Numbered from the stretch's first letter, positions 2,805-30,874 are shown. The stretch is DNA of 64,000 nt from Cyanidioschyzon merolae (GCA_000091205.1 AP006499.2); one strand, 5' to 3'. A program made the numbers and translations. The notes: generated from the letters alone by a model not told the origin.

Positions 2805-4039
2805 CACCCGCCGTAGCTCGGTTGCAAGGGACTCCACCCCCGCCCGGTCGACCGCTCGCCAATCGTCCGGCCGCATGCAGCGTCACTGGCGGACCCAAGT
2901 ACCAAACGCCCCGTGCGAAAGGCACAGCGCCATCGCCGATGGCCCGGGGGCCGCTGCGCCGGCGCACTGACACCCAAACAAGATGCGTCCCGCCTTTACG
3001 CTCCATGATTGATGAATCTAGCCTGACCTTCCCGGATGCGCGCATGCTCTGGCGAGCAACAGCGGTATACGCCGTCAGCTCCATCCGTGTGCCATCGCCA
3101 GCCGCAGCTTTCGCCGCTCGCGCGCGCACGCACGAGCATGGCTGCGGACGCACACGCACGCCATGCGCATCTCAGCTATCATAGGCACAGGGAATGAACG
3201 TCGCTGGTGCGGCCGCGCGCTACCATATCGTGCAGCCGCATTGCAAATCAAGTCGCACACGCATCACCCGATACATGCGACGTCTGGCGCCGCTGCACGC
3301 TGCCCACAAATCATCGCAACATGATCGGAACTTGCCAGCGCCGGTGAATCTGCATGCAGCGCGCCACAGTCCAGATATGAGTACGAAGCGGGACTTTCGC
3401 GCTCTGTATGGTCGATCCCAACTGTAGCGTACAGCACGTCAACTGGCGGTCCACAGAACGGCGCATCGATTCCGGCTTCGTTACTTTGCAAAACGCTACA
3501 AGCGTCTGCGCGGTTGAGTCGCTCCTGCTGCGCGGACGTTACTGCATATGCCCCTGTTGCGTCTTTCTGAGACTGCATAGTGTGTGCGTAGACGCACGCA
3601 GGCGCACATCGCGGGCGTTGTCCATCCGGTCGCTCTTCAGCATTGCATTTCAGTAGCATGTGCGCCGCACATCAAACATGAATCTATGCGTGCGCATCGA
3701 GCGCGGCTTCCTCGGAGCCCAGCTTCCGCTGCAACGGAACACGCCGCAGCTGTGGGCAGAGGCGCGCTCATCGCCAGTGATGAGCGTACATGTGTCGAGC
3801 TGTTATTCGAGCGCACACAAGGAGAACTTGCATGCCGAGAATTTTCGCTCAGGGTGCCCTGAGATGGTGCTCGTGTGGGGTCATCAGGCGGACCCAGCAG
3901 TTCCTCCGTTCCATCAAGAGCCGAGTGAATAGCGGAGACTACAAGCGCTACCGAGTGACCCATGAGGCATCGCATGCTCCAGGCGCAGACGCTAGCAGTC
4001 GGGGCGCGTGCAGCGCAAGTGTCATATCAGGAGAGATGG
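2805..4039. repeat. Left arm of 1.23-kb inverted repeat (IR-C); GC-rich, non-coding
   Basis: Its reverse complement matches 7806-9038. The ORF-track peptides are mirrored exactly, e.g. 3637..3975(-) equals 7868..8206(+). There are about 1-2 mismatches per 250 bp in the inner part, decaying toward the outer ends. All six frames give short overlapping ORFs, typical of GC-rich non-coding DNA. Confidence 0.9.
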
Positions 4040-4618
4040 TTTCGGCCCCGCTCAAAAACTCTGATTTGGGATCTCAGTGATATGGGACTGAGCGGGGAGC
4101 GCGCATGTTTGCATAAATCTGTTCCAGATCGCCTGTGAAGTTCCCTCTTTCCGAGCAGATGTACGAATGAGGAACCAAGTGCAATCTTCCCGGATTTTCA
4201 GGATATCTGCTCAGCATGATCCAGGGTGAATTGCGCGATCACTCTACATATTCCAAGTTGTCTTCCACAAAAAGCATGAAGAATTCGGGTCATTCAGAAA
4301 CCAAGAAGCAGTATGCTAGTGCAAAACGAAACCGTGCTCATCACGTGCCGAACTTTTTTAAGAGCGCGCACGATGCTCCTTGTTATGCTTGCAGACCAAT
4401 GCGTGGAGCAAAGTAGTGCCCGCTTACCTAAATGCGGAGAGCAATCGCGCATTGAAACGATCCCTGCTAAGACTAATTGAGTTCTAGCCATGAAAATCTA
4501 CATAAAAGATTACTACTGGCTCTAAGCACAGCATGCTCGACAGGAAAAAAGCTCATTTCACGAAAATTTCCGAACTGATTCTGATCCGGAATGAAAATAC
4601 TTGAAAAAGAGAAAGCGT

Positions 4619-6538
4619 CTAAAAAGCCGGCAAGAATGCCTTGTCGCGTGCCAGCGGATTTGCTCTGCCATCTTGGGGTCCATTTCTGAGCATCTGAAGA
4701 ATCAAGACGGATGATAAAATGAAACCGATGTGACGCACTCGGACGTGTGATGGCACTAATGATCGCACTTTCAGACGAGGACGATCGCGGTTTCTCAGAA
4801 ACACATTTTCACCAATGGTCACAAAACGATCGAGGAAAGAGATCCCGTTGGGAAGAATCAAATTACCCGCCGAATCCCGCGGACAAGACTCCGAGTTTTC
4901 GACTACACAGACAGGAATGAATATATCCCTTCGACCGGATACGCGATGTACTTCCTCTTGTGCAAGATGCATCCTTCTAGCAAGATTCTCTTCAAATGTG
5001 AGGCCCTCTGGAGGGAGCGCATACCCATGTGTGAAAACCAGTATGCATCGCTCCCATACTCCACCATCGAAGAGACTCTTCAGTTCCTCCAAAACTAGCC
5101 TGAAACAATGGGATCGGTACGAATCCAGTCGCTCTATAATGCAGACAATGTCGATTTCCAAACCGCGAAGCGCAGCTGCGACACTCTCGCATGTTCCAGC
5201 GCGGCTCCATTTCTTAGAATCCTCCCCAGCTTCATCGTAAAAATATTTTTCAGAGGAAGGGATCTCAATCAAACGCAGAGACATCCCTTCCTTTTCTACA
5301 GGATAAATCAGAACGTTTTCGTTCGGCGAAGGAACGAATTCAGTCTTGCGATTTGGATGCGCTCTTTGTTCCCTTTCACGTTCATACGATCGCTCTTCTA
5401 TTACTTCGAGCCCATGCTCTGGATCTCGTTCTAAAATCTCATCATCCGATAGTATGAGAGCCATGGTGTGGTTGGTTCGTGCGACAGGGCTTCCAAGAAT
5501 GCGGTTAATTGTGGCAGACTTTCCTGCACCGATCGTGCCAGCGAAAAGAATAGTGGCATCTCGAAATGGAGAATGCGCGCGAACGACGTCCACTAATTGA
5601 TTTACAGTGGCGCACCCTGGCCGCGAATCATTCCCAAAGCCGCGAATGATTTCCTCATAGTTCCTTCTTTGGAGACCGACTTGCTTCATGCAAGCTGTGA
5701 ATGCTTCCGAGTCCGTCTTTTCGGCGTAAGCACAAAGCACTTTGCACGCAAGGTGCAGATTTTTTCCTTCAATAACGTCTTCTGGCTCAAACAGTGCATT
5801 GGCATCGAGCCCCGCATTCCGTGCAGAATCCAGAAAGAGCTGAATGCACCGCCGCATGCTGTCCAAATTCCGTGCATCTCCAGAGCACGGAGCGTCTATT
5901 CCGGCAATATGCAAGAAAACGTTAGGGTCGCTGAGCACAGCCCGAAGCCCGTTTGAAGAAGATTCCGATGCGCCTGTTTTTCGTGCGATCCACAACAGGC
6001 AGAGCCTTTCCAAGGCTTTTTCAGTGGCATCTGGAATAGCTCCCCAAGGTTGCTCCCCACAGACCTCCGACAGCGAAGGCTTATCAGAAAGCGTAGGGCT
6101 GGGCCCCTGCTGCCAACTCGACCCAGACTCTTTGAGATCTTTGCTATATGGCGCTGGGCTTGTCACCACGAGTGCTGCGAGACGAGACAGGTTAAGCTCT
6201 TGCTTCACGTGTATACCCATGTTGTAAAGATGTCGCTCATCGGATATGAAGAATTCTCCGTCAGCTGCGTTTTCCGCTCCGTGTCCTTCAGATTCCGTGC
6301 CTTTTCGGGACTGGCTAAGCACCCCTGGAAGAAGATTACGCCGAAAGAGTTGGCGCCGACGTGACCGAGTTCGTCCTGTGGAAGGCCTCGAGCCTCTCGT
6401 GGTTTTATCCGAGTCGGCTGTGCGCCGGCCAGAGACGTCGCGCCTTTCAGCAGCATCATCACCGCGAGGCTCGACACGCTCTGCAAAATCCAGTCTGACT
6501 TGTTCTCTAGTCTGCGGAGAGGTAAAGCTCTCCGTCAT
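4619..6538 (-). CDS. AIG1/Toc34-type (TRAFAC, paraseptin-like) GTPase with ~370-aa N-terminal extension and C-terminal hydrophobic anchor
   Basis: P-loop 'ILFAGTIGAGKSATINRILG' resembles AIG1 'GKSATGNSI' and Toc34 'GKSSTVNSI'. The family-specific 'CILVFTHGYALPPEGLTFEE' resembles Toc34 'LTHAQFSPPDGL'. The C-terminal 'HIGFILSSVLILQML' is a likely TM helix. It is a 639-aa ORF. Confidence 0.6.
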   Translation of the reverse strand: MTESFTSPQTREQVRLDFAERVEPRGDDAAERRDVSGRRTADSDKTTRGSRPSTGRTRSRRRQLFRRNLLPGVLSQSRKGTESEGHGAENAADGEFFISDERHLYNMGIHVKQELNLSRLAALVVTSPAPYSKDLKESGSSWQQGPSPTLSDKPSLSEVCGEQPWGAIPDATEKALERLCLLWIARKTGASESSSNGLRAVLSDPNVFLHIAGIDAPCSGDARNLDSMRRCIQLFLDSARNAGLDANALFEPEDVIEGKNLHLACKVLCAYAEKTDSEAFTACMKQVGLQRRNYEEIIRGFGNDSRPGCATVNQLVDVVRAHSPFRDATILFAGTIGAGKSATINRILGSPVARTNHTMALILSDDEILERDPEHGLEVIEERSYEREREQRAHPNRKTEFVPSPNENVLIYPVEKEGMSLRLIEIPSSEKYFYDEAGEDSKKWSRAGTCESVAAALRGLEIDIVCIIERLDSYRSHCFRLVLEELKSLFDGGVWERCILVFTHGYALPPEGLTFEENLARRMHLAQEEVHRVSGRRDIFIPVCVVENSESCPRDSAGNLILPNGISFLDRFVTIGENVFLRNRDRPRLKVRSLVPSHVRVRHIGFILSSVLILQMLRNGPQDGRANPLARDKAFLPAF

Positions 6539-6824
6539 TTACGGTGCCCTGGAGGTGTCGAGTCCTGCAACTATGCACCTGAGACGCAGCTGAACGAAGC
6601 CCAAACGTTCTGCAGAATCTGAGTAAATTAATACCGGCGTGCAGACGCATACCAACTTTTTTTGACCGTCTCCATGCTATCGGTTTCAACTTGTCATTGT
6701 ACAGCTCGATCCTGAGAGGTTGCCCCACAAAGTTGACTCTTGTCAGCTCCTTGGGTCTCATTTTCAGCACCGCACATTTTCTGATATTGATGATGGCATG
6801 GAAGTCTCGGTTCACGAACTCCAT
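6507..6824 (-). mobile_element. Degenerate Tc1/mariner transposase N-terminal (paired-like HTH with GRPR-like linker) fragment
   Basis: Peptide 'IRKCAVLKMRPKELTRVNFVGQPLRIELYNDKLKPIAWRRSKK' aligns to Tc1 'KTGRPRVTSSRADRLLIRSSKQNP'-type HTH1-GRPR-HTH2. Paralogous copies lie at 48249-48524 and 63535-63954. No DDE domain follows it; the GTPase gene starts right there. Confidence 0.45.
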
Positions 6825-7275
6825 GCGTTTATTGCCTCTGGATCAACGCACTATTGCTAGAGTTCCTCGAACTCGTACCCACTGTCCCACTACAGTCTCG
6901 TCATCCTCCCGTTGGGCATACATCTTTTGCTCAGTTGGCTCCCCTATTTTTCTTCGTCTTCGTTATTTCCTCTTCTTCGCTGCATGGTTGGCGAGAACGA
7001 GATGTTCCGTTTATTACTGCAGTCATCGATGACGGCCCTCAAGGATTCGCAAATTCCAGATCCATAACATTCTCACAGATTTTTACTTTTGGAAAAGAAC
7101 GCACTTAGAACGTATTTACTGAAACCTGGGAAAAAGCATTTGCTTACGCTCATCTGCGGACGGAACACAGATGAGGTGCAAGCCTCGAAATGACGCGATC
7201 GCAAATTTGCACAGTCCATTCGGTTTGGAAAGTCTTGATTAGAAAGTCTTCTGCTCTACTAGAACGAATCCGGAT

Positions 7276-7509
7276 ATGCTTGGGAGGACGCTGAGTTTAT
7301 TAAAGTCAAAAGTGGCCAGAAGTGCCCCGTTTCTTCACGCGAAGCATGGACCGCAGAACTACTACAAAGGAAACCGCTGTCGTCGGCTGGGTCGACACAC
7401 GCGCAAGGGTGGGTACGTCGTAGACCACGCAAACAAGGTCCCTGACTTCAGAATACCGCAAATTCCAGAAGATTTTCCACTGAAACCATATGTTGCAGTT
7501 GGTTCGTAA
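7276..7509 (+). CDS. Mitochondrial ribosomal protein mL41 (MRPL41/yeast MRPL27 family), first exon
   Basis: 'NYYKGNRCRRLGRHTRKGGYVVDHANKVPDFRIPQIPEDFPLKPYV' matches the mL41 family signature (compare 'FVVPDLTGFKLKPYVS'). The ORF stops in ...GGTTCG|GTAAAG, a plausible 5' splice donor. This suggests a downstream exon. Confidence 0.55.
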   Translation: MLGRTLSLLKSKVARSAPFLHAKHGPQNYYKGNRCRRLGRHTRKGGYVVDHANKVPDFRIPQIPEDFPLKPYVAVGS

Positions 7510-7805
7510 AGGTTTCTGGGGCTACGTTTGGACACCTTTCGTCGTGGCGAGGGAAAAATCTGCAGGGAGTTTCAAATAACGCTGCAATATGGACGACTAT
7601 GATGAGAAGACGCTTCTTTCCCCAACTGAGGCGCAACGGTTTTTACACCACTGCCAATATGACGATTAAGGCAAGTACTTACCTCTGAGAGTCCTGATGC
7701 AACCCTGTCAAAAACATATAGCGCAAAAGCACGAATAAGGTCACGGTCCTTCTGTGAGTGGCAGTATTTCACAACGTTGAGTTTTACTCGAAGCAGCTGG
7801 AAACC

Positions 7806-9038
7806 CTCTCTCCTGATATGACACTTGCGCTGCACGCGCCCCGACTGCTAGCGTCTGCGCCTGGAGCATGCGATGCCTCATGGGTCACTCAGTAGCGCTT
7901 GTAGTCTCCGCTATTCACTCGGCTCTTGATGGAACGGAGGAACTGCTGGGTCCGCCTGATGACCCCACACGAGCACCATCTCAGGGCACCCTGAGCGAAA
8001 ATTCTCGGCATGCAAGTTCTCCTTGTGTGCGCTCGAATAACAGCTCGACACATGTACGCTCATCACTGGCGATGAGCGCGCCTCTGCCCACAGCTGCAGC
8101 GTGTTCCGTTGCAGCGGAAGCTGGGCTCCGAGGAAGCCGCGCTCGATGCGCACGCATAGATTCATGTTTGATGTGCGGCGCACATGCTACTGAAATGCAA
8201 TGCTGAAGAGCGACCGGATGGACAACGCCCGCGATGTGCGCCTGCGTGCGTCTACGCACACACTATGCAGTCTCAGAAAGACGCAACAGGGGCATATGCA
8301 GTAACGTCCGCGCAGCAGGAGCGACTCAACCGCGCAGACGCTTGTAGCGTTTTGTAAAGTAACGAAGCCGGTATCGATGCGCCGTTCTGTGGACCGCCAG
8401 TTGACGTGCTGTACGCTACAGTTGGGATCGACCATACAGAGCGCGAAAGTCCCGCTTCGTACTCATATCTGGACTGTGGCGCGCTGCATGCAGATTCACC
8501 GGCGCTGGCAAGTTCCGATCATGTTGCGATGATTTGTGGGCAGCGTGCAGCGGCGCCAGACGTCGCATGTATCGGGTGATGCGTGTGCGACTTGATTTGC
8601 AATGCGGCTGCACGATATGGTAGCGCGCGGCCGCACCAGCGACGTTCATTCCCTGTGCCTATGATAGCTGAGATGCGCATGGCGTGCGTGTGCGTCCGCA
8701 GCCATGCTCGTGCGTGCGCGCGCGAGCGGCGAAAGCTGCGGCTGGCGATGGCACACGGATGGAGCTGACGGCGTATACCGCTGTTGCTCGCCAGAGCATG
8801 CGCACATCCGGGAAGGTCACGCAAGATTCATCAATCATGGAGCGTAACGGCGGGACGCATCTTGTTTGGGTGTCAGTGCGCCGGCGCAGCGGCCCCCGGG
8901 CCATCGGCGATGGCGCTGTGCCTTTCGCACGGGGCGTTTGGTACTTGGGTCCGCCAGTGACGCTGCATGCGGCCGGACGATTGGCGAGCGGTCGACCGGG
9001 CGGGGGTGGAGTCCCTTGCAACCGAGCTACGGCGGGTG
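7806..9038. repeat. Right arm of inverted repeat IR-C
   Basis: It is the reverse complement of 2805-4039 (see the left arm). Confidence 0.9.
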
Positions 9039-10253: not shown

Positions 10254-12872
10254 TTATGGAAACTCATAGGCGACTTCCAAAAGAGCAAAATCACATCCCG
10301 GTGCCGCGCGATACAGAGCCAGCAGGCAAGCCATTGGTTTGTTACGAATAGCGGCGAGTCCCTTCTCACGTAGCGAGCCGCGCAAGCTTGCGCCGAAGCG
10401 ACCCAGAAATGCTGTGCGTTTGTTGTAAGTTTTGGCGATCCCTGACCCGAAAACAGTTCTTCCAGGGGTGATGACGACAGGGATCCAGCTATTGTTGTCA
10501 TTCAGAGCGCGAAGGTGCCCAATGTGAATCTCATCGAAGTAAACAGTAGCGAATGAGGATCCTGCTAGCCCTAAAGCCTTCGCTTCCTCGAGCTGAGCCT
10601 TCTCAGGTTTTGAGGTGGATCTGAAGCACGAAAGATATCCGTATACCAGAACCTCTCGTCTTTCTCGTAGAAAGATTTCCGACTGGACTGCTCTAAGTCG
10701 CTCAAACTCAATGCAAAGGTTTTCAATTTTCTCCTGGCCTCCATACAGTGCTGCTAATTGCTCTAGCGTGTCAGTGTATCGAAAGGTGCTATGCTGGATC
10801 CTTCCAAGTGCGAATGTTTGACGTATCTTGACAGATTTTTTCCCCTCCGAGGATTGAATCCATCGAGCTAATGCCAGTATACGACGAACAAGACGATCCT
10901 GCAGAATTACTTTCGGAATATTTTCAGGGAGGCTCGTGCCCTCCGTTCTTTTTTGCTGTTCTCTTACTCCATCTAGCAGGTACATTGAGGTCCATCGGGT
11001 CGAATGTACCTCCATGATGCTGACACCATCAAAAGGAGCATTGTACAGCTCTCGCTTTTCGAGGGATGTTAGCAGGATTGCCGCACCTGGAACGCAGATA
11101 GCATCAAATGCATCGCGTTGGGAGGTTTCATAAAGGCGAATGCAGACGTCTCGCGCTTCGGATCCATCGCGCGCCAAAATGATTCTATATTTCCTAAAAA
11201 TGTAGTAGTCATCTGATGCACTCAGTATTTGCGGTGCACTCGTCCGTTCTGCAGACCTGTACGTCCCGCGCTCTCGATACAGAGGTGACACATGTGTCAC
11301 AATGCATGCTAGAGAGAAATACGAGCGGTCGTCCCATGCATCCAGAGCGCTGGTAAGAATGCAGGGGTGGTAGAGTTCACCCGTTCGACCACCGCCAAGC
11401 TTTGCAATAGGTCCGAAATCAAGTAACTCCTCATAATTATCTGAAAGCTTCCGAATAATGCCCTGGGGCGATGATGCATTCAGGTGAATCTCGCCTCTGC
11501 GTACACGGTAATTCTCTATGATAAGGATGTCACCGAGTTGAATGTGATAAAAATATTTGGAACAAAGCGAATTCCACACGACAACAGTAGCAGAATCCGC
11601 ACCGTCACCTATCTCAAATTCGAATTTGAATGGCACTGACTGCCGCATGTCACTCTTTTTCGGCCATGGCATTAGGGACGTCTTTCTGAGGACGCGCCCG
11701 ATGATTGGTCGCTTCACGTCTCCCATCAGCGCCCTGGCGATGCGCACCGCTGCACTAGTGACTGATTTAATCGAAGCTGGGTCTTCGACACGCTCTACGT
11801 TGCTAGGGTCTCGCAATCTGGAATCGACAGGTAAGGCATCAAACGCTCCAGGACCAAGATAACTCTTTCTCGACGATGCCAAAGGGACATTTGCAGCAGT
11901 CTCAAGCGGGGTGGATGACGTTGTCCAAGCGCATGTCAGGGGAACGTCTATCCAAAAATCCTCGTGGGGTCGACGTAGTACGAGACAGTCATACACAACG
12001 ATTACTCGAGGCGGGTAGAGTCCGCGCAATTCGTTGAAACGAACTGACCATTTTCTTATTTCTAAAATGCTCCCTCGATCTAGGTCACCGGACTGGACGA
12101 TTGAATTCAAATGTGGGTGTAGGCAAAAGCGTGTTTTCGTCTGCTCAACCGGATTGCAGACGGTAATGTCATACGCATCTGCATCCATCTCAGGGATTTC
12201 ATCTTTTGTGCCGTTGACCGTAAACCAATAGGCTTGATCCCGGATATAATGCCGGACGCATAGAACTAGGAACACGATTGAACCGCGGCATTCTTCCCCA
12301 GGAGCACACTCGTGGAGCTTTTCCGTGCCAGCAGTCGTGAATATTTGGTCTCGTTCCTTTGGCTCTGAAGAGCCGCTCTGAACCAGGCTTGAAGAGGCTG
12401 AAACCTGACCTGTGTTGGACTTTGCAAGCTTTTGATTTGCGACTTTTAACGTGCCCTCCCTCGGCCGCTTGCGCTGGTTTCCACGGTTTCCAGTCTGTCG
12501 CTTGCTGCGTGAGTCCCGCGAGTCAGACCCTTCGACCTGTACTGTACGATTCTCTACAGCCTTCTGCAGCGGCTTTGCTCGACTCTTTTGCAGCTCTTCG
12601 TCTTGCCTCCTTTGGAAAATAGGTTTCACATAGTCATCAGCCTTGGTGTCGCCGAAGCGTCCACTTTTACGAGGCATTAACCGTTCTGTACGAGAACGTT
12701 TGTTGTTTTCTCGGATACACTCGCAATCAGAAATTTGCGCCACATTCAAATTGGGCGCGTGCTGGACAGATGGTGCATCATAAGCACAGGATGTATCCAG
12801 CTGCGCGCAGCTTCCGCCTATATCAGTCAAAGATAGAATAGACCCCGTGAGGAAAGTCGGACGTACTCGCAC
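10254..12872 (-). CDS. Hypothetical nuclear protein (872 aa): basic low-complexity N-terminus, central OB-fold-like segment
   Basis: Long uninterrupted ORF. The K/R-rich region is at aa 55-160. 'FKFEFEIGDGADSATVVVWNSLCSKYFYHIQLGDILIIENYRVRRGE' is OB-fold-like. No family was recognised. The first ~23 codons lie inside repeat DR-A, so the true start is probably a downstream Met. Confidence 0.5.
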   Translation of the reverse strand: MRVRPTFLTGSILSLTDIGGSCAQLDTSCAYDAPSVQHAPNLNVAQISDCECIRENNKRSRTERLMPRKSGRFGDTKADDYVKPIFQRRQDEELQKSRAKPLQKAVENRTVQVEGSDSRDSRSKRQTGNRGNQRKRPREGTLKVANQKLAKSNTGQVSASSSLVQSGSSEPKERDQIFTTAGTEKLHECAPGEECRGSIVFLVLCVRHYIRDQAYWFTVNGTKDEIPEMDADAYDITVCNPVEQTKTRFCLHPHLNSIVQSGDLDRGSILEIRKWSVRFNELRGLYPPRVIVVYDCLVLRRPHEDFWIDVPLTCAWTTSSTPLETAANVPLASSRKSYLGPGAFDALPVDSRLRDPSNVERVEDPASIKSVTSAAVRIARALMGDVKRPIIGRVLRKTSLMPWPKKSDMRQSVPFKFEFEIGDGADSATVVVWNSLCSKYFYHIQLGDILIIENYRVRRGEIHLNASSPQGIIRKLSDNYEELLDFGPIAKLGGGRTGELYHPCILTSALDAWDDRSYFSLACIVTHVSPLYRERGTYRSAERTSAPQILSASDDYYIFRKYRIILARDGSEARDVCIRLYETSQRDAFDAICVPGAAILLTSLEKRELYNAPFDGVSIMEVHSTRWTSMYLLDGVREQQKRTEGTSLPENIPKVILQDRLVRRILALARWIQSSEGKKSVKIRQTFALGRIQHSTFRYTDTLEQLAALYGGQEKIENLCIEFERLRAVQSEIFLRERREVLVYGYLSCFRSTSKPEKAQLEEAKALGLAGSSFATVYFDEIHIGHLRALNDNNSWIPVVITPGRTVFGSGIAKTYNKRTAFLGRFGASLRGSLREKGLAAIRNKPMACLLALYRAAPGCDFALLEVAYEFP

Positions 12873-19951: not shown

Positions 19952-20155
19952 TTCTAACGCGGCCTCAAAACCTTTTTCTTGATCGCGGGACACCTACTTA
20001 GCTGGAACATTGTATGCAAAATCGCTCATGTTTGTTAATACAGAGACCCCGGAGGCACATTCACATGCACGTTCGGGCCCACATTCTCATTCGAAAAAAC
20101 TAACATACAAGTAAGTTCCACAATGCCAAATCTGGCGTGGTTTATGGCGGTACAA

Positions 20156-21922
20156 CTATTTTCTGCTATTCATAGGCTTGGGATCACGAAAAAGTTTCTC
20201 GTCGCTCAGACCATGTGAGTTGAGAAATGTCACTAGAAGTCGCACACGTTTTTCGATTTTTGTAGGCTCTGCCACAACTGAAGTATCCACAGATCGTTCC
20301 GCAGTAGGACACGTGTTTCGTAGCACTTGGCGGAGAGGAGAAAGAGCTTTTCTTCCATAAAAGGAGCAAAGTTCAATCAGAAGATGGCCGTAAAACTCGT
20401 TCGTCTTCTTTTCATTCAGATAACACTGGAGAATAGCTTCTAAAGCCTGATACAGCGAAGCGCTTCGTGAACTACGGCTTAGTAACTTGTAAATTCTTGA
20501 AGCGGCTTCTATGAAATTCACAGAGGAGGCCAAAATCTCAACAACTGATCTGCCAGTCGCGCTCCAGATACGATTCCTATCCAGTAAAGAAGAGATTCGA
20601 TCCTTGGATTCCAAGAGCTCAGTAGCTCCTGACGTACCCTTCGACGAAGCCCTTCTGGTGAGGCTAGAATTCTCCCAAAGGATCCCGCCATCAGTTACTA
20701 GGCTCTCCTTGCTCGCATCATCACAAACTTCGGGGCGTTTTGAAATAGTCGCGTTTGCTCTAATGCGTTTTTCGTAAACGAAAGATGATCCTAGTTTGGC
20801 ATGAACCCACAGTAAAGCTTCGGGCACAGGTTCCAGAGCGCTCTGAGCGCTCAGCTCTTGTGATCGACTTTCGCGTACGACGTCCGCAATAACTGTTTCT
20901 ATCATGTAAACTGTGCAGCCTTCATGAAACTCTCTGAAGTGGCTGCTTCTTTCGCATCCACACGAGGTAGTCTCATGCATGTTCCTACAGATACTTCTTA
21001 GTTGAGCCTCGAATGCCGCAAACTTTTCGGGAAAAGAATTACGAAGATGCAAACCACAGAGCTTCGTGACATGAAGCATACCAACGAGACCGACTGCGTT
21101 TCCGCTGTTGAGCACGGATGACTTGGCAAGTTCAAATACGACTTCCCATTCAATCATTCCGCCCAGAAACAGATGGCATAGCGGCGTTAAAGCATCAAGC
21201 AAATTTTGCAAGTCTAATCTTCCGGATGCTCCAACATTTTGGAGCCTCTCTGTGACTTTCACGAAAAAGCAGTTGACGAAACTAGCGTCGACGGTGCAGT
21301 GAAGATAAATCAGAACAGCACACAAAGCTGCACAGTTAAATGTTGATACGCCTTCATGCTGCCCTTTTGGGTTTTCCATAGCAACCGAATTTTCAAACGT
21401 GCGCCCCATGCGAGCAGAACAAAGAACTGTACAAAATATGTCTCTCAAATGGACGAACCCAAGGGGGTCATGACGAATCTCAGAAAAATACTTGTAAAGT
21501 TTGCTGCAAGTGAGGTCCAGATTCGTGTCCGAAACTCGGTTAAGAATGCTGCTCAGTTGCGAAACGAGACTATCAATCTCATTTTGGGTCCAGGTTTTTC
21601 CCTTTTCCCGCGCACTCGACAGCTTGGTAGCCGTCCCCTCTTGTGGGGCCACATCTTCGTCAACTGCATCTGCGGAAAGACTGGTCTCAGCACCAGACTT
21701 CATCGACTTAACCTTCTGGTTGTTGCTTTTTAAAAGCGGTCCTATGATCACGCCCAGAGAGTCTACGTCGTTTGAAAGAAACTCCGCAGCCTCCCACGTC
21801 TTCAAATCAGTTTGAGGAAAGGCGTACGGGCTCCCACGGCTCTTTCTCTTTCTTGAAAACTTCCGATCGAAGCCTTCAATCTTTCTCTTCAATCTGCTTT
21901 GCAGGCTCAGCTCCTCGTCCAT
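20156..21922 (-). CDS. Hypothetical alpha-helical protein (588 aa), possibly MIF4G-like
   Basis: Long ORF. The 'LVSQLSSILNRVSDTNLDLTCSKLYKYF' segment loosely resembles the start of a MIF4G domain. No firm family assignment. Confidence 0.4.
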   Translation of the reverse strand: MDEELSLQSRLKRKIEGFDRKFSRKRKSRGSPYAFPQTDLKTWEAAEFLSNDVDSLGVIIGPLLKSNNQKVKSMKSGAETSLSADAVDEDVAPQEGTATKLSSAREKGKTWTQNEIDSLVSQLSSILNRVSDTNLDLTCSKLYKYFSEIRHDPLGFVHLRDIFCTVLCSARMGRTFENSVAMENPKGQHEGVSTFNCAALCAVLIYLHCTVDASFVNCFFVKVTERLQNVGASGRLDLQNLLDALTPLCHLFLGGMIEWEVVFELAKSSVLNSGNAVGLVGMLHVTKLCGLHLRNSFPEKFAAFEAQLRSICRNMHETTSCGCERSSHFREFHEGCTVYMIETVIADVVRESRSQELSAQSALEPVPEALLWVHAKLGSSFVYEKRIRANATISKRPEVCDDASKESLVTDGGILWENSSLTRRASSKGTSGATELLESKDRISSLLDRNRIWSATGRSVVEILASSVNFIEAASRIYKLLSRSSRSASLYQALEAILQCYLNEKKTNEFYGHLLIELCSFYGRKALSPLRQVLRNTCPTAERSVDTSVVAEPTKIEKRVRLLVTFLNSHGLSDEKLFRDPKPMNSRK

Positions 21923-22033
21923 GGTCAGCTAAACCCGTCTCCAGTAAAGCAAGGGAAACCAGCTGTGCACGCACGCCTTTTATCGAGGGACTGCCGTTTT
22001 CGAAATCGCGTTGTATGGATCGCTAACTGCGCC

Positions 22034-23390
22034 CATGCAGGAGTGATTTGGAACTGGTCCCACGTAATTTACTCGGTCGAACACTCTAGTCTTTCAGCCT
22101 CTTCCGTCCGTCATTAACTTCAGCCTTTGCGAGCAGTTTCTGCGTATGTTTCCTTTCCTTTTCCCGTACCTCCGGCTTTAAGTGTGCCGGTACCTCACTT
22201 CCATCCAGCTCCGTTCGAAGCAGTCGAAGGATGGTAATAGTGGCCTTAGGGTCCCGAGTTCATTGCCTACGGTTGCTTTCTACGCATTTCATGCACAGAC
22301 GGTAGTTGCGGCCTGCGCGTCACTTCCCATTTTTATTTTCTATGCATACAGCCTACGTGTGCCCTTCGCTGCGGTGAGACTCGGCCCGGTTCAGTTGTTC
22401 ACATATTTCTACAATGTCCCGTCCTCCGCGGGCACCCCTGTGGCTCGAGGTAGCTTGCTATATCGCTCAGTATATGCCTTTGACCCGTACAGAGGTCTTG
22501 TATCGATGCCCTCCTCGGTTTTTCGCGCGCGGTGCCGTATCCTACGATCATGGGCTTCTTCTGGACGGTTTTCTCAGCGAACATGCTGAAGGCTGCATGC
22601 ACGTGCGAACCTTGTTCCATTTGATAAAAGATTTCTTGTATGCGTGAATGCCCTTGATGGTGCACGCACCGGTAGGTTAATCCCGCATGGAGAAGTCTAG
22701 AAATTCCGATCCGAGTGCGCTTCCTCTGTGGAGAGCGGTGACGCAGACGCCACAGGGAGCGATCGTTGTCATGACTGAAGACGGAGTCCAAAAACATTCT
22801 CCAAGCGAACAGACGACTCAAGAGCCACTCGGAGCGCATCCCTAGAAGGTACCATGCTCCTGCAGAGTCTTATTTAATCGACGGCCGCTAAAAGAGGTAG
22901 ACCAGTTCGTCGAACAAAATCGACTGTTGAACTTGGCAAGTTAGGTCAACTTTCTGAACGACTTTGTGAACATGTCGTTCATGGACGACGTAGAGCCTAT
23001 TTTCTCGTCAATTCATAGGCACGAATTACCGCGACAATGAGTTGCCTTGAAGCAGAGAGATCCGCAACATGAAGAACGCGGGATATGAAAATGTTACAAG
23101 AAAAGAAAGGAAAATACCATGGGTGTGGCAGTATTAATTGGAAACGGTGCCGGCCATTGTACGAACGCTCGTTCCACGGCACCGCGAATCATCCTGATTC
23201 CGGTGATGCGTTTAACTCCGGCAGCGAAACGTCGATGTAAACTTTCCGAAAATACGACCAAGCACCCTGAACTAAGAATGAAACAGTCAAGCCTTATTGC
23301 GACACCTGAGAGAGTCGAGGCTGAACGACTGAAAACCTGGGGGAAGATCATAGCACAAGTATAGAGCAAACCATTCAGTGGTGCACTTAA
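22034..23390. repeat. Left arm of 1.36-kb inverted repeat (IR-B)
   Basis: Its reverse complement matches 24859-26216. The ORF peptides are mirrored with 1-2 aa differences (SMFAEK/SIFAEK, SEHAEG/SENAEG). A degenerate extension runs to ~22011. Confidence 0.9.
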
Positions 23391-24858
23391 TGCTTGCGCA
23401 TATGGTTACTGTGCACGGGATAATAGTATGGAGAGATCTCTTCTATACATCATCAATATGCTGTGTGGGAGGAAGGAATTCATATTCCTACCGCGTAAAA
23501 ACTCGTGCATTTCTATTCGCGTTCGGACAGTAACGTCTTCTAGTCACTGTCTGCGTCACCTTCGAAGACAAAAAAGCTTTGCTCGCAAAACTGACATTTT
23601 TCCGGAATATTTTTACAACGCCCGCAAATAATCGCTAATCCTACTCTATAACCGAATTGTTTAAATAACGGGTACCGGGAAAGATCTGGTTGTTCTACAA
23701 ATTGTGCACTGAACGTTCTGCGCGTGATGCATTTTACTTCTATAGAAAATTGAATTTTCAACACCGAAACCGCTTATTGCGCGCAACCTAAATCGGCGCA
23801 GCGGATTGAGTTTTGATTTACTGCTTGGAAGCTAACTGTTCTATGCTGAATATTCTCTGCGATACGGCAATTCTTTGATCACTTAGTAGACGTCGTTCTA
23901 CTTTTAACATATTCTAACTCTTTTGGGGTTGGCGTGTTCAATTTCGCCTGGCCCGTTCTAGCTGGGGCTGTCTAAAAAGACCAGTTGTCTCTTGTCGTGC
24001 GTTCCATTGCTGCCCGAATGCCATTTCATATTTATTGGTTCAAACCCAAAAAAACTGTCTGACTCTGCTCCGTTGTATCAAGCGAGCCACTTCAATGGGT
24101 CAGAGGTTGTTGAGAACGTCGTATTCTTTCAACCATTAACACAGTTTCAGAAGACGACCGAAGGTTTGCTGGCTGGGACAAGATTTTGCGAAAATTTGCA
24201 GTGCAGCAAATCGGGGATCGATTATTCTTAACAAGTAGAAATGAGATCAAGCTCGAAGAATCAATGAAAATGTGTTTATTCTGCCGTAGGTCGCTCGTTT
24301 TCATCCTTCTGTGCACCCATTATTGTTGGATGTTGTTGCGCTTGAGATGAAGACCCTTTCATAGCTCTCCTAGAATAGAAGTTCATTAGAAATGAAAACT
24401 GCACGATTCAGAAATAAGCTACAGATTCAGGAGTATCTGTTTTGATTCATTCTATTCTCTTCAATTTTTGCTGCCCAAAAAATGCATGTCCAGAGCCCCG
24501 ACGATTCTAGCTAAGCCCTATCTTTCCAGTTTTGCGAACCAGAGTAGTTTTCGACACTAGACATCAAATATTCGGCGTAGAGCGAGGCCGTTTATGATTT
24601 TGTAGCAGAAGAGAGCAAAGCATTCAATTCACGCGTGGTATCTCAGATCAAATGCAGAGTCTCAATCATGACCGTGCCATTTCCATGGCTTCATTTTAGT
24701 GGTGTATCTTCAGGATGTTTTCTGCAGCCGCTGACCGCAGGAAACCACAGTTTCATCGTACACAGACGCTAATTCACCTTGATGAGAGGCTATGGCAGGC
24801 ATATTGCGATGCAGGCGGATGCTGCGACCACAGCACTTCTTTGTACTTCAGTGTCAGC

Positions 24859-26216
24859 TTTAAGTGCACCACTGAATGGTTTGCTCTATACTTGTGCTAT
24901 GATCTTCCCCCAGGTTTTCAGTCGTTCAGCCTCGACTCTCTCAGGTGTCGCAATAAGGCTTGACTGTTTCATTCTTAGTTCAGGGTGCTTGGTCGTATTT
25001 TCGGAAAGTTTACATCGACGTTTCGCTGCCGGAGTTAAACGCATCACCGGAATCAGGATGATTCGCGGTGCCGTGGAACGAGCGTTCGTACAATGGCCGG
25101 CACCGTTTCCAATTAATACTGCCACACCCATGGTATTTTCCTTTCTTTTCTTGTAACATTTTCATATCCCGCGTTCTTCATGTTGCGGATCTCTCTGCTT
25201 CAAGGCAACTCATTGTCGCGGTAATTCGTGCCTATGAATTGACGAGAAAATAGGCTCTACGTCGTCCATGAACGACATGTTCACAAAGTCGTTCAGAAAG
25301 TTGACCTAACTTGCCAAGTTCAACAGTCGATTTTGTTCGACGAACTGGTCTACCTCTTTTAGCGGCCGTCGATTAAATAAGACTCTGCAGGAGCATGGTA
25401 CCTTCTAGGGATGCGCTCCGAGTGGCTCTTGAGTCGTCTGTTCGCTTGGAGAATGTTTTTGGACTCCGTCTTCAGTCATGACAACGATCGCTCCCTGTGG
25501 CGTCTGCGTCACCGCTCTCCACAGAGGAAGCGCACTCGGATCGGAATTTCTAGACTTCTCCATGCGGGATTAACCTACCGGTGCGTGCACCATCAAGGGC
25601 ATTCACGCATACAAGAAATCTTTTATCAAATGGAACAAGGTTCGCACGTGCATGCAGCCTTCAGCATTTTCGCTGAGAAAACCGTCCAGAAGAAGCCCAT
25701 GATCGTAGGATACGGCACCGCGCGCGAAAAACCGAGGAGGGCATCGATACAAGACCTCTGTACGGGTCAAAGGCATATACTGAGCGATATAGCAAGCTAC
25801 CTCGAGCCACAGGGGTGCCCGCGGAGGACGGGACATTGTAGAAATATGTGAACAACTGAACCGGGCCGAGTCTCACCGCAGCGAAGGGCACACGTAGGCT
25901 GTATGCATAGAAAATAAAAATGGGAAGTGACGCGCAGGCCGCAACTACCGTCTGTGCATGAAATGCGTAGAAAGCAACCGTAGGCAATGAACTCGGGACC
26001 CTAAGGCCACTATTACCATCCTTCGACTGCTTCGAACGGAGCTGGATGGAAGTGAGGTACCGGCACACTTAAAGCCGGAGGTACGGGAAAAGGAAAGGAA
26101 ACATACGCAGAAACTGCTCGCAAAGGCTGAAGTTAATGACGGACGGAAGAGGCTGAAAGACTAGAGTGTTCGACCGAGTAAATTACGTGGGACCAGTTCC
26201 AAATCACTCCTGCATG
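24859..26216. repeat. Right arm of inverted repeat IR-B
   Basis: It is the reverse complement of 22034-23390. The inner junction is sharp, with 'ggtgcacttaa' shared and flanks diverging. Confidence 0.9.
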
Positions 26217-26886
26217 AGCGCATTCCATACAATGATCACCTCTGGCAAGCTCGAATCGCCCGAGAAACCTTGAAAGCATTCTATACTTTTTCAGAATTGG
26301 AGGGAAAATTGAAAGCTTTGCCTCAAAACGATTGATAACAAAAAAGGCTGCCTAACCCGAAACCCCGAACTCATACGTCCGTACGCTTGACTTAAAAACT
26401 CGTGCATGAAAACTATTCGAGATTGCCGTATACCAAAAAGTAGATCGATTCATCACATAAGTGCATATCTGCACCCTTTCGCTAATCTGAAACTTGTTCG
26501 TCTGTGGGTTCCAGGTCGCGTGAATAACTCTGCTTGAAGATACAAATCATGATAACGTGTGAAGTCTATGAATTACCACTGGATTGATGAAAAATTTCTC
26601 AGCATATGCGCATCACCTACTGTTTAAAAAGCTCTTGAGAATTTTTACAGAACATGCTCACAATTTCGAAATGCGCGGTTACTTGGTAAGCGACTCTCGT
26701 CTAGGCTGTACTGAACTCGGGGAGTATCTGATAATGAGATGCAGAAATATTGCAAGTATCTAGGCTCTCGAAAGCTTCTCATACCTTGCTAAGGATCACT
26801 GCCTGAAGCATGGCTGATCCTGGGAACATCGCTGTGGAAAATTCAGTTCCTCTAAATTAAGCGTTCTGTAAGTTTGTAGCCAGAAT

Positions 26887-27912
26887 ATGGTATTTGTTAG
26901 GGTACTAGCCAAACCTATTACCTTTCGCTATCTTTCCTTGATTTTAATTTTATACGGAAGTCTTTCTGCTTCTATTGTTGCTGAGAAAAATTGCGTAGTC
27001 TTGGCGGCAAATGTTTTCAACAACGTAGGAACGGTAGACCTGTTTCACACGCTCCTCTCTGACTTAGAGGGAATGCTACAAGCCGCTGGGTTTTCCACAG
27101 GCCTGTGCATCTACGAAGACAACTCGAGGGATGGTACCGACGTTCGAGTTTCCCAGTGGAATCAGTCCCGGCGAGGAACACCGTTCACGAGGATCCTTGC
27201 AGACAAGACACCCCCCACGGCAACGGAACGCGTGTCGAGAATAGCAGTTGTTCGCAGCCGTTTGCTGAATCTTATCCATGAGGTTCTGGCGGAAATGCAA
27301 AATTGTTCTGGACGGTATATATTATTTTTTAACGATGTTGTCTTCGAACCATCGGATGTTCATAAGATGGTGCTAGACGGAATCCGGCAGAACTTTGACA
27401 TGCTCTGCGCAGTGGACGTCTATCGAGGGTTTTATGACCGTTGGGTTACTCGGGATGCCTCTGGATTGATCCCATCGCGGTGGGCATCTGTCTTCTTCAC
27501 CGGGAAAACTGGTTCCAGAATACGCAATAAAGATGCAACTGAGTGGCGGACAGATTTTTGGCCTTCGAGAGCCTGCTGGAATGGAGCTGTTTTGGTTAAC
27601 GCAGAAAGTGCACCGCGCAGTTTCCGCAGTGCGAGGAATGACGAATGCTATGCTTCAGAATGCAAGCTTTTTGTTGACGATCTCTTGAAGGAACGTGGCG
27701 GCCAAGCGCGTGTTGCGGTGAGACTCGATACGCTTGTGGCGTACGACGTTATCCATCTCTTACTACATAAGTTTGTTATCAGGACATATGCCTCCCATAT
27801 TGCTGCTTTTCAAAGCCTCGGAGAACTCATTGTGAAAGCGAAGCATCGCTATCAGGCGGAGAGGGTTCTCCAATCAGACCCCTGTCCGAAATTACCAATG
27901 CTTTGTTGTTGA
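26887..27912 (+). CDS. Putative type II membrane GT-A-fold glycosyltransferase-like protein
   Basis: The N-terminal hydrophobic segment is 'YLSLILILYGSLSASIVA'. 'LCIYEDNSRDGTDV' resembles the GT2/GT-A 'DDGSTDGT' nucleotide-sugar motif. 'ILFFNDVVFEP' is a possible DxD equivalent. It is a 341-aa ORF. Confidence 0.35.
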   Translation: MVFVRVLAKPITFRYLSLILILYGSLSASIVAEKNCVVLAANVFNNVGTVDLFHTLLSDLEGMLQAAGFSTGLCIYEDNSRDGTDVRVSQWNQSRRGTPFTRILADKTPPTATERVSRIAVVRSRLLNLIHEVLAEMQNCSGRYILFFNDVVFEPSDVHKMVLDGIRQNFDMLCAVDVYRGFYDRWVTRDASGLIPSRWASVFFTGKTGSRIRNKDATEWRTDFWPSRACWNGAVLVNAESAPRSFRSARNDECYASECKLFVDDLLKERGGQARVAVRLDTLVAYDVIHLLLHKFVIRTYASHIAAFQSLGELIVKAKHRYQAERVLQSDPCPKLPMLCC

Positions 27913-28110
27913 TTGCTACGGAAATGTTTTGAACTGTTTCACGAATCATTGTTATTTATTTTCAAAAGTAACTCATGAAACTCTCGCAAAGAATTGAAGC
28001 GCATGTGGCCATCCTCCTGTAAGGCGCTTAGCCGTTTAAAAACCATTAATATGGCCCACGCAGATCGTCTTAGACCTATATTAATTTCAGATGGAGGAGA
28101 TCCTCGCACA

Positions 28111-30874
28111 CGGACGTACTCGCACTATATTCTGGACCTATTTTGCACGACCATCAGCACAAGTCATTGCAGTTTGCACCGCGACCGCTTCCTTCTCCTT
28201 TCCCGTATCTCCGACTTTCAATACGCTGGCGTCTCCTAGCCCTCCAGCTTCGATGTCAGCAGGCGAAGGATGCCGATGGCTGCGTTCATTCGAACCCAGA
28301 GTTTCCTGCTTCCAGCCCTCATCGACGTACTTCATGCAAAGGCGGAAGTTGTGATCTGCGCTTCTTTTAGCATTTTCATCCTTTTTGTCCACAACTCCGG
28401 TGCACCCTTCGCAGCGAGGACACTTGCCCGTTGTCCGGTGCCGCCATACGTCCATCGCACGTCTTGCTCCGAGTGCCGCCCTGTGGCGCATGCCTGCTTG
28501 CAGTGTCGCTCGGTACACGCCCTCGACGGGTGCAGAGCGCTCCGCTTCATGCGCTCTTCAGTTTCTGTGCCCAGCGCCATACCCTGCGATCACAGGCTCG
28601 GGCTGGGCGATCCCCGCGGCAAGCACCCTCACTGCTGGGCGCGTAAACGCTCGCTGCTCGATTCGAGTACTCGGAATCCGCTCCCTCGCACGCTCTTCGT
28701 TTTTCGCGTACGCTTCCCATCGAAGCTGCCGACGAGCATCACGCGACTCGAGGTGCCGTGCCAGCTCATGAGTATTGTGCGCGCAGGTTCCATCCACTTG
28801 CGACGATGCGGGTCAGCCATCTGCGACTCCCTTCGTCTCCGGTCGCTCGCTCGCTCGCTTGCGTGTTCTTCTATCCCCATACTCGTTCGCTTCCGCTTCA
28901 GCGAAGATGGCAGGCGCGGGAGGAGAAGTCACGACTGTGGGCGTAACTCGGACGTTTCCGATCCCGTGCCCCGGGACGGGGTGTCGGTTTCCACATGGGC
29001 GTCGGACTTCGCCTCGGGTCTCACGGAGGCGCTGGTGCAACGCTTCGCTCTCCTTGGGCTCCTGCCGTTGCTGAGTGCACTGGATTGCAGGTTCACGAGG
29101 CCACGCATCTGTACAGCTTGCTGCTCATCGTCGCCGTGTTTCCTGTTCTGAGCAGGGGTGCGTTGGAGCTCTGATGGGGCCTTGAGGCATGTAGGGCGCT
29201 CACGACTGATAGCGGTGGATGCTGCCAGGCCATCGGTCTCGAACGAGGACACCACGCCTCCTCGACTTTATGTGAGCGTTCTGTTTCTATCTGTTCCCTG
29301 CCTGTCGCATCTCTCTTTAGCGTCGTTCGCTTTTCGTTCCCCCAGCGGTTCATGAGTGTCTCCGAAGTTTCGGGCGAAATTTGGGTAGTACGCTTCATGT
29401 ACTCTATGCTGTCGATGGATACCTCCTCTTCTTCGATGTGCTCCTTGGCCTCCATAGGACGTTTCCATGCCCTAATCCCTCGTGCGTGGGCGCCCACTTC
29501 GCAGCGAGGCGAAAAAGCCGCGAACCGGGGCGCGCGTACGAGCGACCTATAAATGCGTTTACAGCAAGGCGAAAATCCATTCCATTCAGGGGCTCTGGAA
29601 CAGTTCCCGAGGTGCAGAGGCTGTTTCACTCGCTCGGGTAGGCACTCGCAGGCTGCAGGTCTATAGTCTCCTCGACATGTTCGTCTTCCAGGATACTCAA
29701 CGGAGGCTCACGCGCTCTGTATATCCGCCCAGCATATTCAAGTCGGCGAAGCGCCCGTCATGAAGAGCTCGTCCATGCCGTCCAGGCTGGTATCTGAGTC
29801 GTCATCCGCACGTATCCACGTCATCGAATCCTTCACGCGCCATGGGAATGAATGCTGGCATGATCCAGGGTCGCGCGGCGTAGTTTTCCGCCCATATACA
29901 CCTTTGAGTTATCCAGGCTGATTTGGGTCGCGAAGCGAATGCTGGCCTCGAAATGCGCAACGTCGTTCGGCTATGGAGCCAAAGTGCCCGCGACGTCGAT
30001 GAAAGCACAGTGCAGGTGAGGTGTGTCCCGACTACGCTTCGAGACAGTGACGGCATGAAAGGCCATCGATGCCAACGGTGCATCTACGAAGTTGTTCGGT
30101 TTCTCAGGGACCCCGATGCACTGGACGTACACGGTCCTAGGCAGGAGGTAAGCGCGCCACTGACGCATGCTGCAAAGAAGCGCATGTTTGCGGACGCGGA
30201 ATCTGATATCCGGCGGGTGCGGGTGCATTTCGAAGTATCCCTTGCCGACAGTGGTGCCGTAGAATACCTCATACAAACAGCGAAGGAGGGAGTTTCCGAG
30301 ATCGTATCCCGTGAGATGTAGCGCACTGCTTATTTGGGATGTGGTTTCGTTGATGGTTGGAAAGCGAGAATATTTTGTGTTTCAAACGGAATCGATTATA
30401 TGAGGTGAGGATTTGAACATACTTTCGGTATGAGCTCTTGAAGAAGTATTCGCACGAAAACTTCCAACTTTTGCGTCGTCAACCGAGCGTAGCGGCCTGG
30501 TGCGCCCACGAGTAGCCTTGAAACATGGAGATCGGAAGCGTGCAGAATGCCTGACTTGAGCGTGCAACGCGTAACTAAAGGAAAAGAGTTCAGGCTTCCT
30601 TGTACGAATTGCATCATGATATCGGCTATTTTAGGCAACGGTATGTGAGGATATCTCGAATCACCTTGATGCTGGTGATGTAACGAATCCCTTCGGTGCA
30701 AAGTCGAGGGAGCCACTTTGAAGAGTCGACCGAGAATCCTAGAACGATGCATGAGTCCTGAGGCCCTCATTGCTGGACTATGAATACTCGGGTCCTGCAT
30801 CTGAAAATGAGTTCGGGTGAAAAATCGAAATCGAGGAACACAGGCAGCAGCTCCGTGTTCTACTTCACTCCGAC
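28111..30874 (+). repeat. DR-A copy 3: full-length 2.76-kb direct repeat
   Basis: Collinear with copy 1 at offset 15253. About 10 substitutions are seen as single-aa changes in the mirrored ORFs. The flanks are unrelated to those of copy 1. Confidence 0.9.

Follow-up and report, generated by a model that had tools for sequence, protein, structure and literature searches.

What accounts for the crowding of long, near-identical repeats into the first half of a 64,000-nucleotide stretch of Cyanidioschyzon merolae 10D chromosome 17 (GCA_000091205.1, AP006499.2)? In this whole stretch, hereafter the window, a first-pass annotation made from the sequence alone had recognised an inverted repeat (IR-C), a direct repeat in three copies (DR-A) and a second inverted repeat (IR-B) within positions 2805-30874, and had read them as three unrelated, non-coding systems marking a structurally plastic and possibly accessory region. 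We favour, with a probability of roughly 0.78, a different explanation, in which the repeats of the window are relics of a Fanzor1 family together with the products of local duplication and gene conversion. On this explanation the window would hold five anciently diverged lineages, all relics of a ~3-kb Fanzor1 element (RuvC/Zn-ribbon, of an RNA-guided nuclease family, with no terminal inverted repeats (TIRs)). Local duplication would have given the DR-A lineage three copies within 18 kb and the IR-B lineage two, which lie 1.5 kb from each other in opposite orientation; IR-C would be an unrelated 1.24-kb segment that came to flank two host genes as a pair of inverted duplicates. For DR-A at least, the linked paralogues would be kept near-identical by ectopic gene conversion that is still ongoing, and not by very recent insertion alone.

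Three repeat systems confirmed in independent assemblies

The arms of IR-C (2805-4043 and 7800-9038) are 1239 nt long and 99.3% identical, with 9 differences, and those of IR-B (22028-23394 and 24856-26222) are 1367 nt long and 99.8% identical, with 3 differences. For the direct repeat, positions 12858-15621 (copy DR-A1) recur at 28111-30874 (DR-A3; 2764 nt, 99.86%, 4 differences), and positions 12803-14194 recur at 18560-19951 (DR-A2; 1392 nt, 99.93%, 1 difference). The lengths and identities of all three systems far exceed chance.

For comparison between strains we used contigs from many independent metagenome and Sequence Read Archive assemblies (labelled L001-L062). The environmental strains sampled in this way are near-clonal with 10D, differing from it by 0.10-0.15% overall, and their contigs are gap-free and collinear with the window at 99.85-99.90% identity, with the same repeats present. 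At 99.8-99.9% identity, metagenome contigs reproduce the junctions between repeat and unique sequence for every copy: L006 covers DR-A2 plus both of its flanks, and the DR-A3 junctions are supported by L051-L055 and by L028, L036 and L037. Given that these junctions recur in independent assemblies, the repeats are real and not artefacts of the reference assembly. To this extent the first-pass annotation was confirmed, with three long repeat systems at 99.3-99.9% identity in the places where it had put them.

One diverged family includes both DR-A and IR-B

The statement that the three systems share no sequence holds for IR-C, which is unrelated to both of the others, and fails for DR-A and IR-B, which match each other by nhmmer at E values of 1e-20 to 1e-39. 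This DNA search, together with translated comparison, places DR-A and IR-B in one diverged family, which we call X. IR-B also matches three more copies of 1.35-1.44 kb in the second half of the window (E 1e-74 to 1e-89). These equal the IR-B arms in length, contrary to the description of the second half as holding only short, degraded transposable-element remnants; that half also carries a palindromic element, a fragment of a DDE_3 transposase and two members of a small family, Y. The family occurs in both halves, and what sets the first apart is that its duplicates are near-identical.

Four of the X copies lie on the minus strand. DR-A1 (12803-15625) is a near-full-length, 2.8-kb Fanzor1 element by collinear tblastn and hidden Markov model matches, and its open reading frame (ORF) is frameshifted and stop-containing. 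DR-A2 (18560-19951) has the Fanzor C-terminal half and the 3′ terminus without the N-terminal half, and differs by one base from DR-A1 12803-14194. DR-A3 (28056-30880) is a full-length mosaic copy, 99.86% identical to DR-A1 from 28111 with its first 55 bp diverged. The left arm of IR-B (22010-23400) is a short, 1.35-kb, internally deleted Fanzor1 element, detected by nhmmer and by a match of Fanzor profile positions 645-680 to 22256-22149 (E 3e-05). Its inverted counterpart, the right arm (24851-26234; 3 differences), is on the plus strand, as are three old, independent lineages of the short form: X34k (33451-34886; nhmmer E 1e-74 to 1e-76 against IR-B, Fanzor profile E 4e-08), X49k (48653-50029; E 1e-80 to 1e-82 and 2e-10) and X62k (61737-63084; E 1e-88 to 1e-89 and 7e-06). 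The five lineages (DR-A, IR-B, X34k, X49k and X62k) are approximately equidistant at 52-60% identity, with X34k at 52-58% to the remaining lineages in the identity matrix, and the local duplicates are at least 99.5% identical.

The copies are built from shared modules. DR-A carries a ~600-bp X module at each end (12803-13413 and 15017-15625) and ~1.6 kb of extra interior, of which DR-A2 retains a part together with a single end. The 1.35-kb copies of the short form are internal-deletion derivatives, in which the 5′ module is joined to the C-terminal and 3′ module. The two IR-B elements stand head-to-head, and the 1461-bp spacer between their 5′ ends (23395-24855; ~42% GC) has no ORF over 82 aa and is unmatched elsewhere in the window by nhmmer. 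Candidate TIRs in the X copies scored no better than shuffled controls, and no target-site duplications (TSDs) above chance were found at the X copy flanks.

Family X derives from Fanzor1

A majority consensus of the X copies restores protein motifs on the strand opposite to that in which the first-pass annotation had oriented DR-A, and the consensus peptide retrieves more intact relatives (E 4e-37 to 7e-22). A profile of these relatives matched 322 proteins in a representative library of 1.84 billion proteins; many of the 322 are 650-900 aa long, with the match at the C terminus. Four full-length relatives exceed the Pfam gathering threshold for Cas12f1-like_TNB (PF07282), their sole domain. 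A full-length profile of 12 sequences matches the solved Fanzor1 structures 8gkh (Spizellomyces, SpuFz1; E 2e-10) and 9cf0 (Parasitella; E 2e-9) and gives weaker matches to TnpB-like and Cas12f structures, the alignment running over the RuvC, Zn-ribbon and RuvC-III region. Consistent with this likeness, the 'C..C ... C..C ... NRDFNAAxNI' motif of Fanzor1 nucleases is recognisable in the X consensus.

Within the window, all eight X copies match the relatives on the predicted strand. DR-A1 matches the Fanzor-like relative P0045 by tblastn (E 5e-21), and DR-A is collinear with positions 60-633 of the full-length profile, in shifting frames and with at least one stop. In DR-A1, profile block 60-118 falls at 15005-14829, 362-428 at 14005-13790, 486-558 at 13529-13311 and 563-633 at 13298-13077. 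Since these matches are collinear and shift in frame, DR-A is identified as a near-full-length Fanzor1 pseudogene. The description of the repeats as non-coding was not confirmed: intact genes are absent, and yet DR-A, IR-B and their relatives are remnants of frameshifted Fanzor1 ORFs. Stretches over the DR-A copies (12001-14000, 18001-20000 and 28001-30000) also show a marked strand asymmetry, with an AT skew of -0.14 to -0.20, and a high GC content of 56-58%, which fits the antisense strand of a former protein-coding gene.

With their ORFs frameshifted, the X elements of the window are dead relics, whose role is limited to that of a recombination substrate. They differ from Fanzor1 nucleases in being pseudogenes without a detectable omega-RNA-like structure, and activity is not inferable from them. 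For six X termini, too few lineages for a fair test, RNAalifold returned -11 kcal/mol and a covariation contribution that was unfavourable, and the conserved 3′ block of the termini is accounted for by coding sequence; neither these six termini nor an Rfam scan yielded an omega-RNA-like conserved structure at the X 3′ end.

Several narrower searches were empty. PDB searches with the C-terminal profile A2 alone or with relative P0047 alone gave zero matches, Pfam and PDB searches with single decayed X peptides found nothing, and an exact look-up of a 291-aa DR-A ORF gave no identity; of all the queries, the full-length profile of 12 sequences alone reached Fanzor structures. A DDE_3 (IS630-type) identity for family X was also considered on the strength of 'AIDETGF' and 'DNIAF' motifs and an E value of 2e-5 for a hand-stitched frame. 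Such stitching is biased, and the assignment was rejected: a single frame did no better than E 0.07, and full-length Fanzor relatives have an N-terminal 'GVIDEIEF' to which the motif corresponds.

Probable match to a known element family, and its local density

Two published descriptions from this genome bear on family X. Nozaki (2007) reported a novel interspersed repetitive element of 253 copies, averaging 3.2 kb and making up ~5% of the genome on all chromosomes, which is transcribed, carries a truncated ORF weakly similar to WSV486 of white spot syndrome virus (WSSV), and was described as 'distributed randomly'. Bao & Jurka (2013; PMC3627910) described CMe-1A, a C. merolae Fanzor1 family with a ~3-kb consensus and ~150 copies at ~80% identity to that consensus, without TIRs and with TSDs undetermined, some copies of which still encode an intact Fanzor1; they also described TE-N2_CMe, a 635-bp derivative in ~70 copies, and listed a single Fanzor1 for WSSV.

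Family X resembles CMe-1A and TE-N2_CMe in organism, in size (2.8 kb for DR-A against ~3 kb), in its TnpB-like Fanzor1 protein, in lacking TIRs and determinable TSDs, in its old, diverged copies and in having shorter derivatives that share the 5′ ~600 bp. It differs in its 1.35-kb form (5′ plus C-terminal/3′ modules), which is not explicitly described for CMe-1A, and in its identities of 52-60%, which sit towards the bottom of the range to be expected from 80% identity to a consensus. With the element of Nozaki (2007) it shares size, a truncated ORF, dispersal and abundance, and the single Fanzor1 of WSSV fits WSV486 being that protein, which we infer it to be. From organism, size, protein and end structure, compared by description, we infer that family X is CMe-1A and the 253-copy element.

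The published random distribution contrasts with the window, where copy number is ~8 times the mean by way of local duplication. A total of 253 copies genome-wide corresponds to 0.98 per 64 kb (~1 per 65 kb), and the window has 8 (P ~9e-6). Five independent lineages in one 64-kb window are expected in ~0.9 windows genome-wide, so that the excess of copies is essentially the result of local duplications. The five diverged lineages within 64 kb are themselves consistent with an old, dispersed family.

Local duplication and probable concerted evolution

In the available assemblies, all recovered contexts of near-identical DR-A (internal ORF variants) and IR-B (a 34-mer) lie within this locus. DR-A3 is a mosaic, because its terminal 55 bp (28056-28110), a diverged X terminus in register with the family alignment, adjoin a tract that is 99.86% identical to DR-A1. 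The most telling signal comes from the substitutions that separate the environmental strains from 10D. Those at 15273, 15468 and 15528 in DR-A1 are found at the homologous positions 30526, 30721 and 30781 in DR-A3 (offset 15,253), and those at 13753 and 13929 in DR-A1 at 19510 and 19686 in DR-A2 (offset 5,757). Within DR-A, most differences between environmental strains and 10D fall at homologous paralogue positions in this way, and all copies occupy the same sites. At each DR-A1/DR-A3 site 8-9 of 9 assemblies are concordant, two assemblies deviating at one site each; such agreement is not expected from random bubble resolution. Given that the paralogues are alike within a lineage and different between lineages, these data point to concerted evolution by gene conversion.

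C. merolae recombines homologous sequences efficiently, and such recombination would be the homogenising force. The pattern resembles concerted evolution and non-allelic homologous recombination in plastid inverted repeats, Y-chromosome palindromes and ribosomal DNA, where two paralogues of one strain resemble each other more closely than orthologues of different strains do and where inverted arms flank a segment that could flip; it differs in that the evidence from the window consists of short-read metagenome contigs and inversion is unproven. The suggestion of a rearrangement hotspot gains modest support from the concerted evolution of the paralogues and from the mosaic end of DR-A3; the copy excess comes from local duplication.

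A number of points weigh against our interpretation. The X-derived peptides and their closest relatives individually fall below the Pfam threshold and have no direct PDB match, so the link to Fanzor passes through the profile of more distant full-length relatives. The assignment to CMe-1A and to the WSV486-like element was made by matching descriptions rather than by aligning to a consensus. Short-read assemblies share graph edges between near-identical repeats, and bubble popping could equalise alleles. Conversion cannot start at ~58% identity, and an initial duplication is still needed. One end of the high-identity tract between DR-A1 and DR-A3 stops exactly at the element boundary, which fits whole-element duplication as well as conversion. 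Finally, IR-C lies outside the family, and we regard it as a locus-specific inverted duplication, unexplained in origin and nature.

IR-C and possible inversion of the spacers

Each arm of IR-C sits between the two 3′ ends of a convergent gene pair. For the left arm (2805-4043) the pair is a PPR gene and CMQ137C, and for the inverted right arm (7800-9038) it is the MRP-L27 gene and an ATP10-like gene. The 3.76-kb spacer contains CMQ137C, a family Y stub and the MRP-L27 gene. No coding remnant was detected in the arms, whose 131-aa ORF matches only itself among 5.8 billion protein clusters, and no TIR or TSD was found, the outer flanks (…GGCTAAAG / TGCTGTAT…) being without duplication. That IR-C might be a dispersed family was considered and rejected, as relatives of its ORF are lacking and it matches neither X nor Y by nhmmer.

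The geometry of IR-C and IR-B raises the question of whether their spacers (3.76 kb and 1.46 kb) flip between the arms, with both isomers coexisting. Such inversion would be compatible with our interpretation, and we consider it possible, although the odds are somewhat against it. For IR-C, both reciprocal junctions of the inverted isomer recur in several independent assemblies: a junction of the Toc34 side through an arm to the ATP10/RADX side (D-arm-B) is present in L040, L041 and L042 and one of the MRP-L27 side through an arm to the PPR side (A-arm-C) in L023 and L024, alongside reference-orientation junctions in L043-L046, L019 and L020; for IR-B, L060 joins the CMQ144C flank via an arm to the reversed spacer. 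The general efficiency of homologous recombination in C. merolae also speaks for flipping. Against it, when inverted repeats exceed the span of a read or insert, both spacer orientations are valid paths through an assembly graph, and in the environmental strains the two arms look identical across ~1 kb. L050/L062 shows assemblers leaving a repeat wrongly, and the MEGAHIT contig L047 ends at an arm boundary. Given the symmetric graph and the mis-exit of L050 through DR-A, the metagenome contigs leave flip-flop at IR-C or IR-B plausible and unproven.

Two other contig structures involve DR-A. Three 5,880-bp contigs (L001-L003) comprise the 5,757-bp unit from DR-A1 to DR-A2 plus a 123-bp overlap, with arbitrary starts; the overlap and the arbitrary starts mark them as assembler cycles. 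L050/L062 joins the left flank of DR-A3 to the right flank of DR-A2, the junction expected of a 9,496-bp circle or tandem duplication. Both are probably assembler artefacts, the alternative being a tandem duplication or extrachromosomal circular DNA of the unit containing Lhcr1.

Recent transposition as a source of near-identity

Near-identity could also reflect youth, if DR-A and IR-B were fresh insertions of trans-mobilised subfamilies that had landed nearby in a recent burst. At 15621/30874 and at both ends of the IR-B arms, the limits of high identity do fall on element ends, and some CMe-1A copies are reported to encode an intact Fanzor1 still (Bao & Jurka 2013, PMC3627910). We nevertheless regard a burst as unlikely. 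The copies are frameshifted pseudogenes, near-identical copies outside the locus were not found in the available assemblies, DR-A2 is a half-element, the DR-A3 terminus is diverged and in register, and no TSDs were found. Moreover, 10D and the environmental strains have all copies at the same sites and yet show substitutions shared between paralogues.

Chromosomal compartment and centromere-like structure

The first-pass annotation had suggested a subtelomeric or pericentromeric-like position or a strain-specific island, and the low GC content of IR-B could be taken to suggest something centromere-like. At 20-28 kb the window reaches its lowest GC (45.6-47.7%, against 51.5% for the window as a whole), with the IR-B spacer lower still, and C. 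merolae centromeres are reported as regions of 2-3 kb and ~48% (48.4%) GC in a genome of 55% GC, enriched in CENH3, one per chromosome and with no repeat or other pattern. A local abundance of family copies ~8 times the mean for the genome would also be in keeping with a special compartment, and IR-B, with an AT-richer 1.46-kb core between 1.37-kb inverted repeats, resembles the small inverted-repeat centromeres of Komagataella phaffii and Candida tropicalis. This resemblance is one of geometry only; the published centromeres of C. merolae are without a repeat pattern.

Other observations make a special compartment of any of these kinds improbable, and we give it little credence. The telomere repeat AATGGGGGG is absent from the 64 kb, even when 2 mismatches are allowed; by its locus tags (CMQ137C-CMQ146C), the window is separated from the chromosome ends by more than 100 features; and the blocks of subtelomeric homology known in C. 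merolae extend at most 20 kb. Together these three facts lead us to reject a subtelomeric position. The region is dense in housekeeping genes, and the prior for any 64-kb window containing the centromere of chromosome 17 (CEN17) is ~5%. By chance, about one 64-kb window in the genome would be expected to hold five independent lineages, and this, too, speaks against a special domain. A strain-specific island also finds no support, every recovered environmental contig being collinear with the same repeats and the structure identical in every sampled strain, although this is a weak test, made on near-clonal strains only. Near-identity at this locus does not indicate a telomere-proximal or accessory compartment.

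More speculatively, near-identity could be the footprint of Fanzor-type homing instead of passive non-allelic homologous recombination: an active Fanzor1 with its guide RNA elsewhere in the genome would cut in or close to the relics, and homology-directed repair would overwrite neighbouring elements with a copy of one of them. Alternatively, IR-B could coincide with CEN17. Homing would have left its traces in the in-register mosaic boundary 55 bp from the 3′ end of DR-A3 and in the partial copies biased to the 3′ side, namely DR-A2 and the Y stubs. The evidence specifically supports neither idea, and we hold both to be long shots.

Other structured elements and assembly artefact

The spacing of the repeats, with direct copies 5.8 kb apart and inverted ones 3.8 kb apart, is the only feature in favour of DR-A being long terminal repeats (LTRs) or of the IR-C arms being the ends of a composite or TIR transposon carrying cargo genes. 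Gene content leads us to reject both as very improbable: host genes (CRAL-TRIO and Lhcr1) and no reverse transcriptase or integrase lie between DR-A1 and DR-A2, and the IR-C spacer holds host genes and a Y stub, with a transposase absent and no TSD around the unit. In addition, the DR-A repeats are themselves Fanzor pseudogenes, and no LTR elements are known in the C. merolae genome (Nozaki 2007). That the near-identical repeats were introduced during assembly of the reference has a negligible chance of being correct, given a reference finished telomere to telomere and independent metagenome assemblies from many samples that reproduce the unique junctions of every copy, including L006 across DR-A2.

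Gene content of the window

Chromosome 17 is 1,232,258 bp long with 355 protein genes, of which the window covers CMQ137C-CMQ146C, and the window is gene-dense with ordinary nuclear, core gene content. Inside the IR-C spacer lie CMQ137C (4619-6538, minus strand, start codon at 6538), which encodes a Toc34-like GTPase (BAM82044; exact protein match, AIG1 domain and literature), and the MRP-L27-like host gene (7243-7506, plus strand; Pfam PF09809, E 3.9e-12), whose stop-free stretch begins at 7243. Exact protein matches further identify the CRAL-TRIO protein BAM82047 (15859-17118, plus strand), Lhcr1 (17675-18319, minus strand), which we take to be CMQ142C, CMQ144C (20156-21922, minus strand) and CMQ146C (26887-27912, plus strand). 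Pfam also identifies PPR, ATP10-like, RADX-like, MRP-L27 and trehalose-phosphatase proteins, and a CAP59-like gene is among the window genes. A tRNA scan and an Rfam scan of the window gave zero matches.

The Lhcr1 segment was also found in another context. Positions 205-994 of contig L005 (JGI 3300050363) correspond to window positions 17593-18382 (790 bp, 99.7% identity) and adjoin a gene with PhoH and PIN domains, the rest of the contig being without similarity to the window. L005 may represent a second Lhcr1 locus, the arrangement of another strain or a chimeric contig.

Family Y and other small repeats

Family Y has three copies in the window, all detected by nhmmer: Y6k (6589-7203, minus strand), Y48k (48123-48613, plus strand), which adjoins X49k, and Y63k (63187-63803, plus strand), which adjoins X62k. 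Profile-profile comparison by hhalign, in which Y6k also features, aligns family Y with the RuvC-III motif at the far C terminus of the Fanzor profile (E 1.2e-5, probability 81%), and by this similarity the family is probably the 3′-terminal stub of another Fanzor1 lineage. A further Y copy lies ~2.4 kb upstream of window position 1 (L018 6472-6664) and is 96.9% identical to Y63k (63173-63365), giving family Y a high-identity pair ~65 kb apart. Y6k fills almost the entire divergent intergenic region between CMQ137C and the MRP-L27 gene, where this transposon relic may supply or overlap a bidirectional promoter.

Beside Y48k and X49k is an ORF fragment of a DDE_3 (IS630/Tc1-type) transposase (47599-48048, plus strand; E 1.3e-7, above the Pfam threshold), which probably belongs to the set of eight 'class II elements' that the C. 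merolae genome has been reported to contain. A palindromic element at 57932-58584, ~650 bp long and ~71% self-complementary, has partial relatives at 37131-37516 and 51373-51636 (69-76% identity) and looks like a miniature inverted-repeat transposable element or a hairpin-type repeat.

Implications for the C. merolae genome

The element family at this locus is probably one already known, and its local history of duplication and recombination is ordinary. For work on the region from CMQ137C to CMQ146C, it matters that repeats of 1.2-2.8 kb and more than 99% identity flank genes, among them Lhcr1 and the Toc34-like gene, which bears on both engineering and mapping. With three direct, two inverted and three diverged copies, the locus is a compact case for measuring ectopic conversion and possible inversion. 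For the genome as a whole, what had seemed to be three unrelated systems is corrected to a local cluster of one abundant family in an otherwise almost repeat-free genome, in which Fanzor1 relics make up ~5% of 16.5 Mb.

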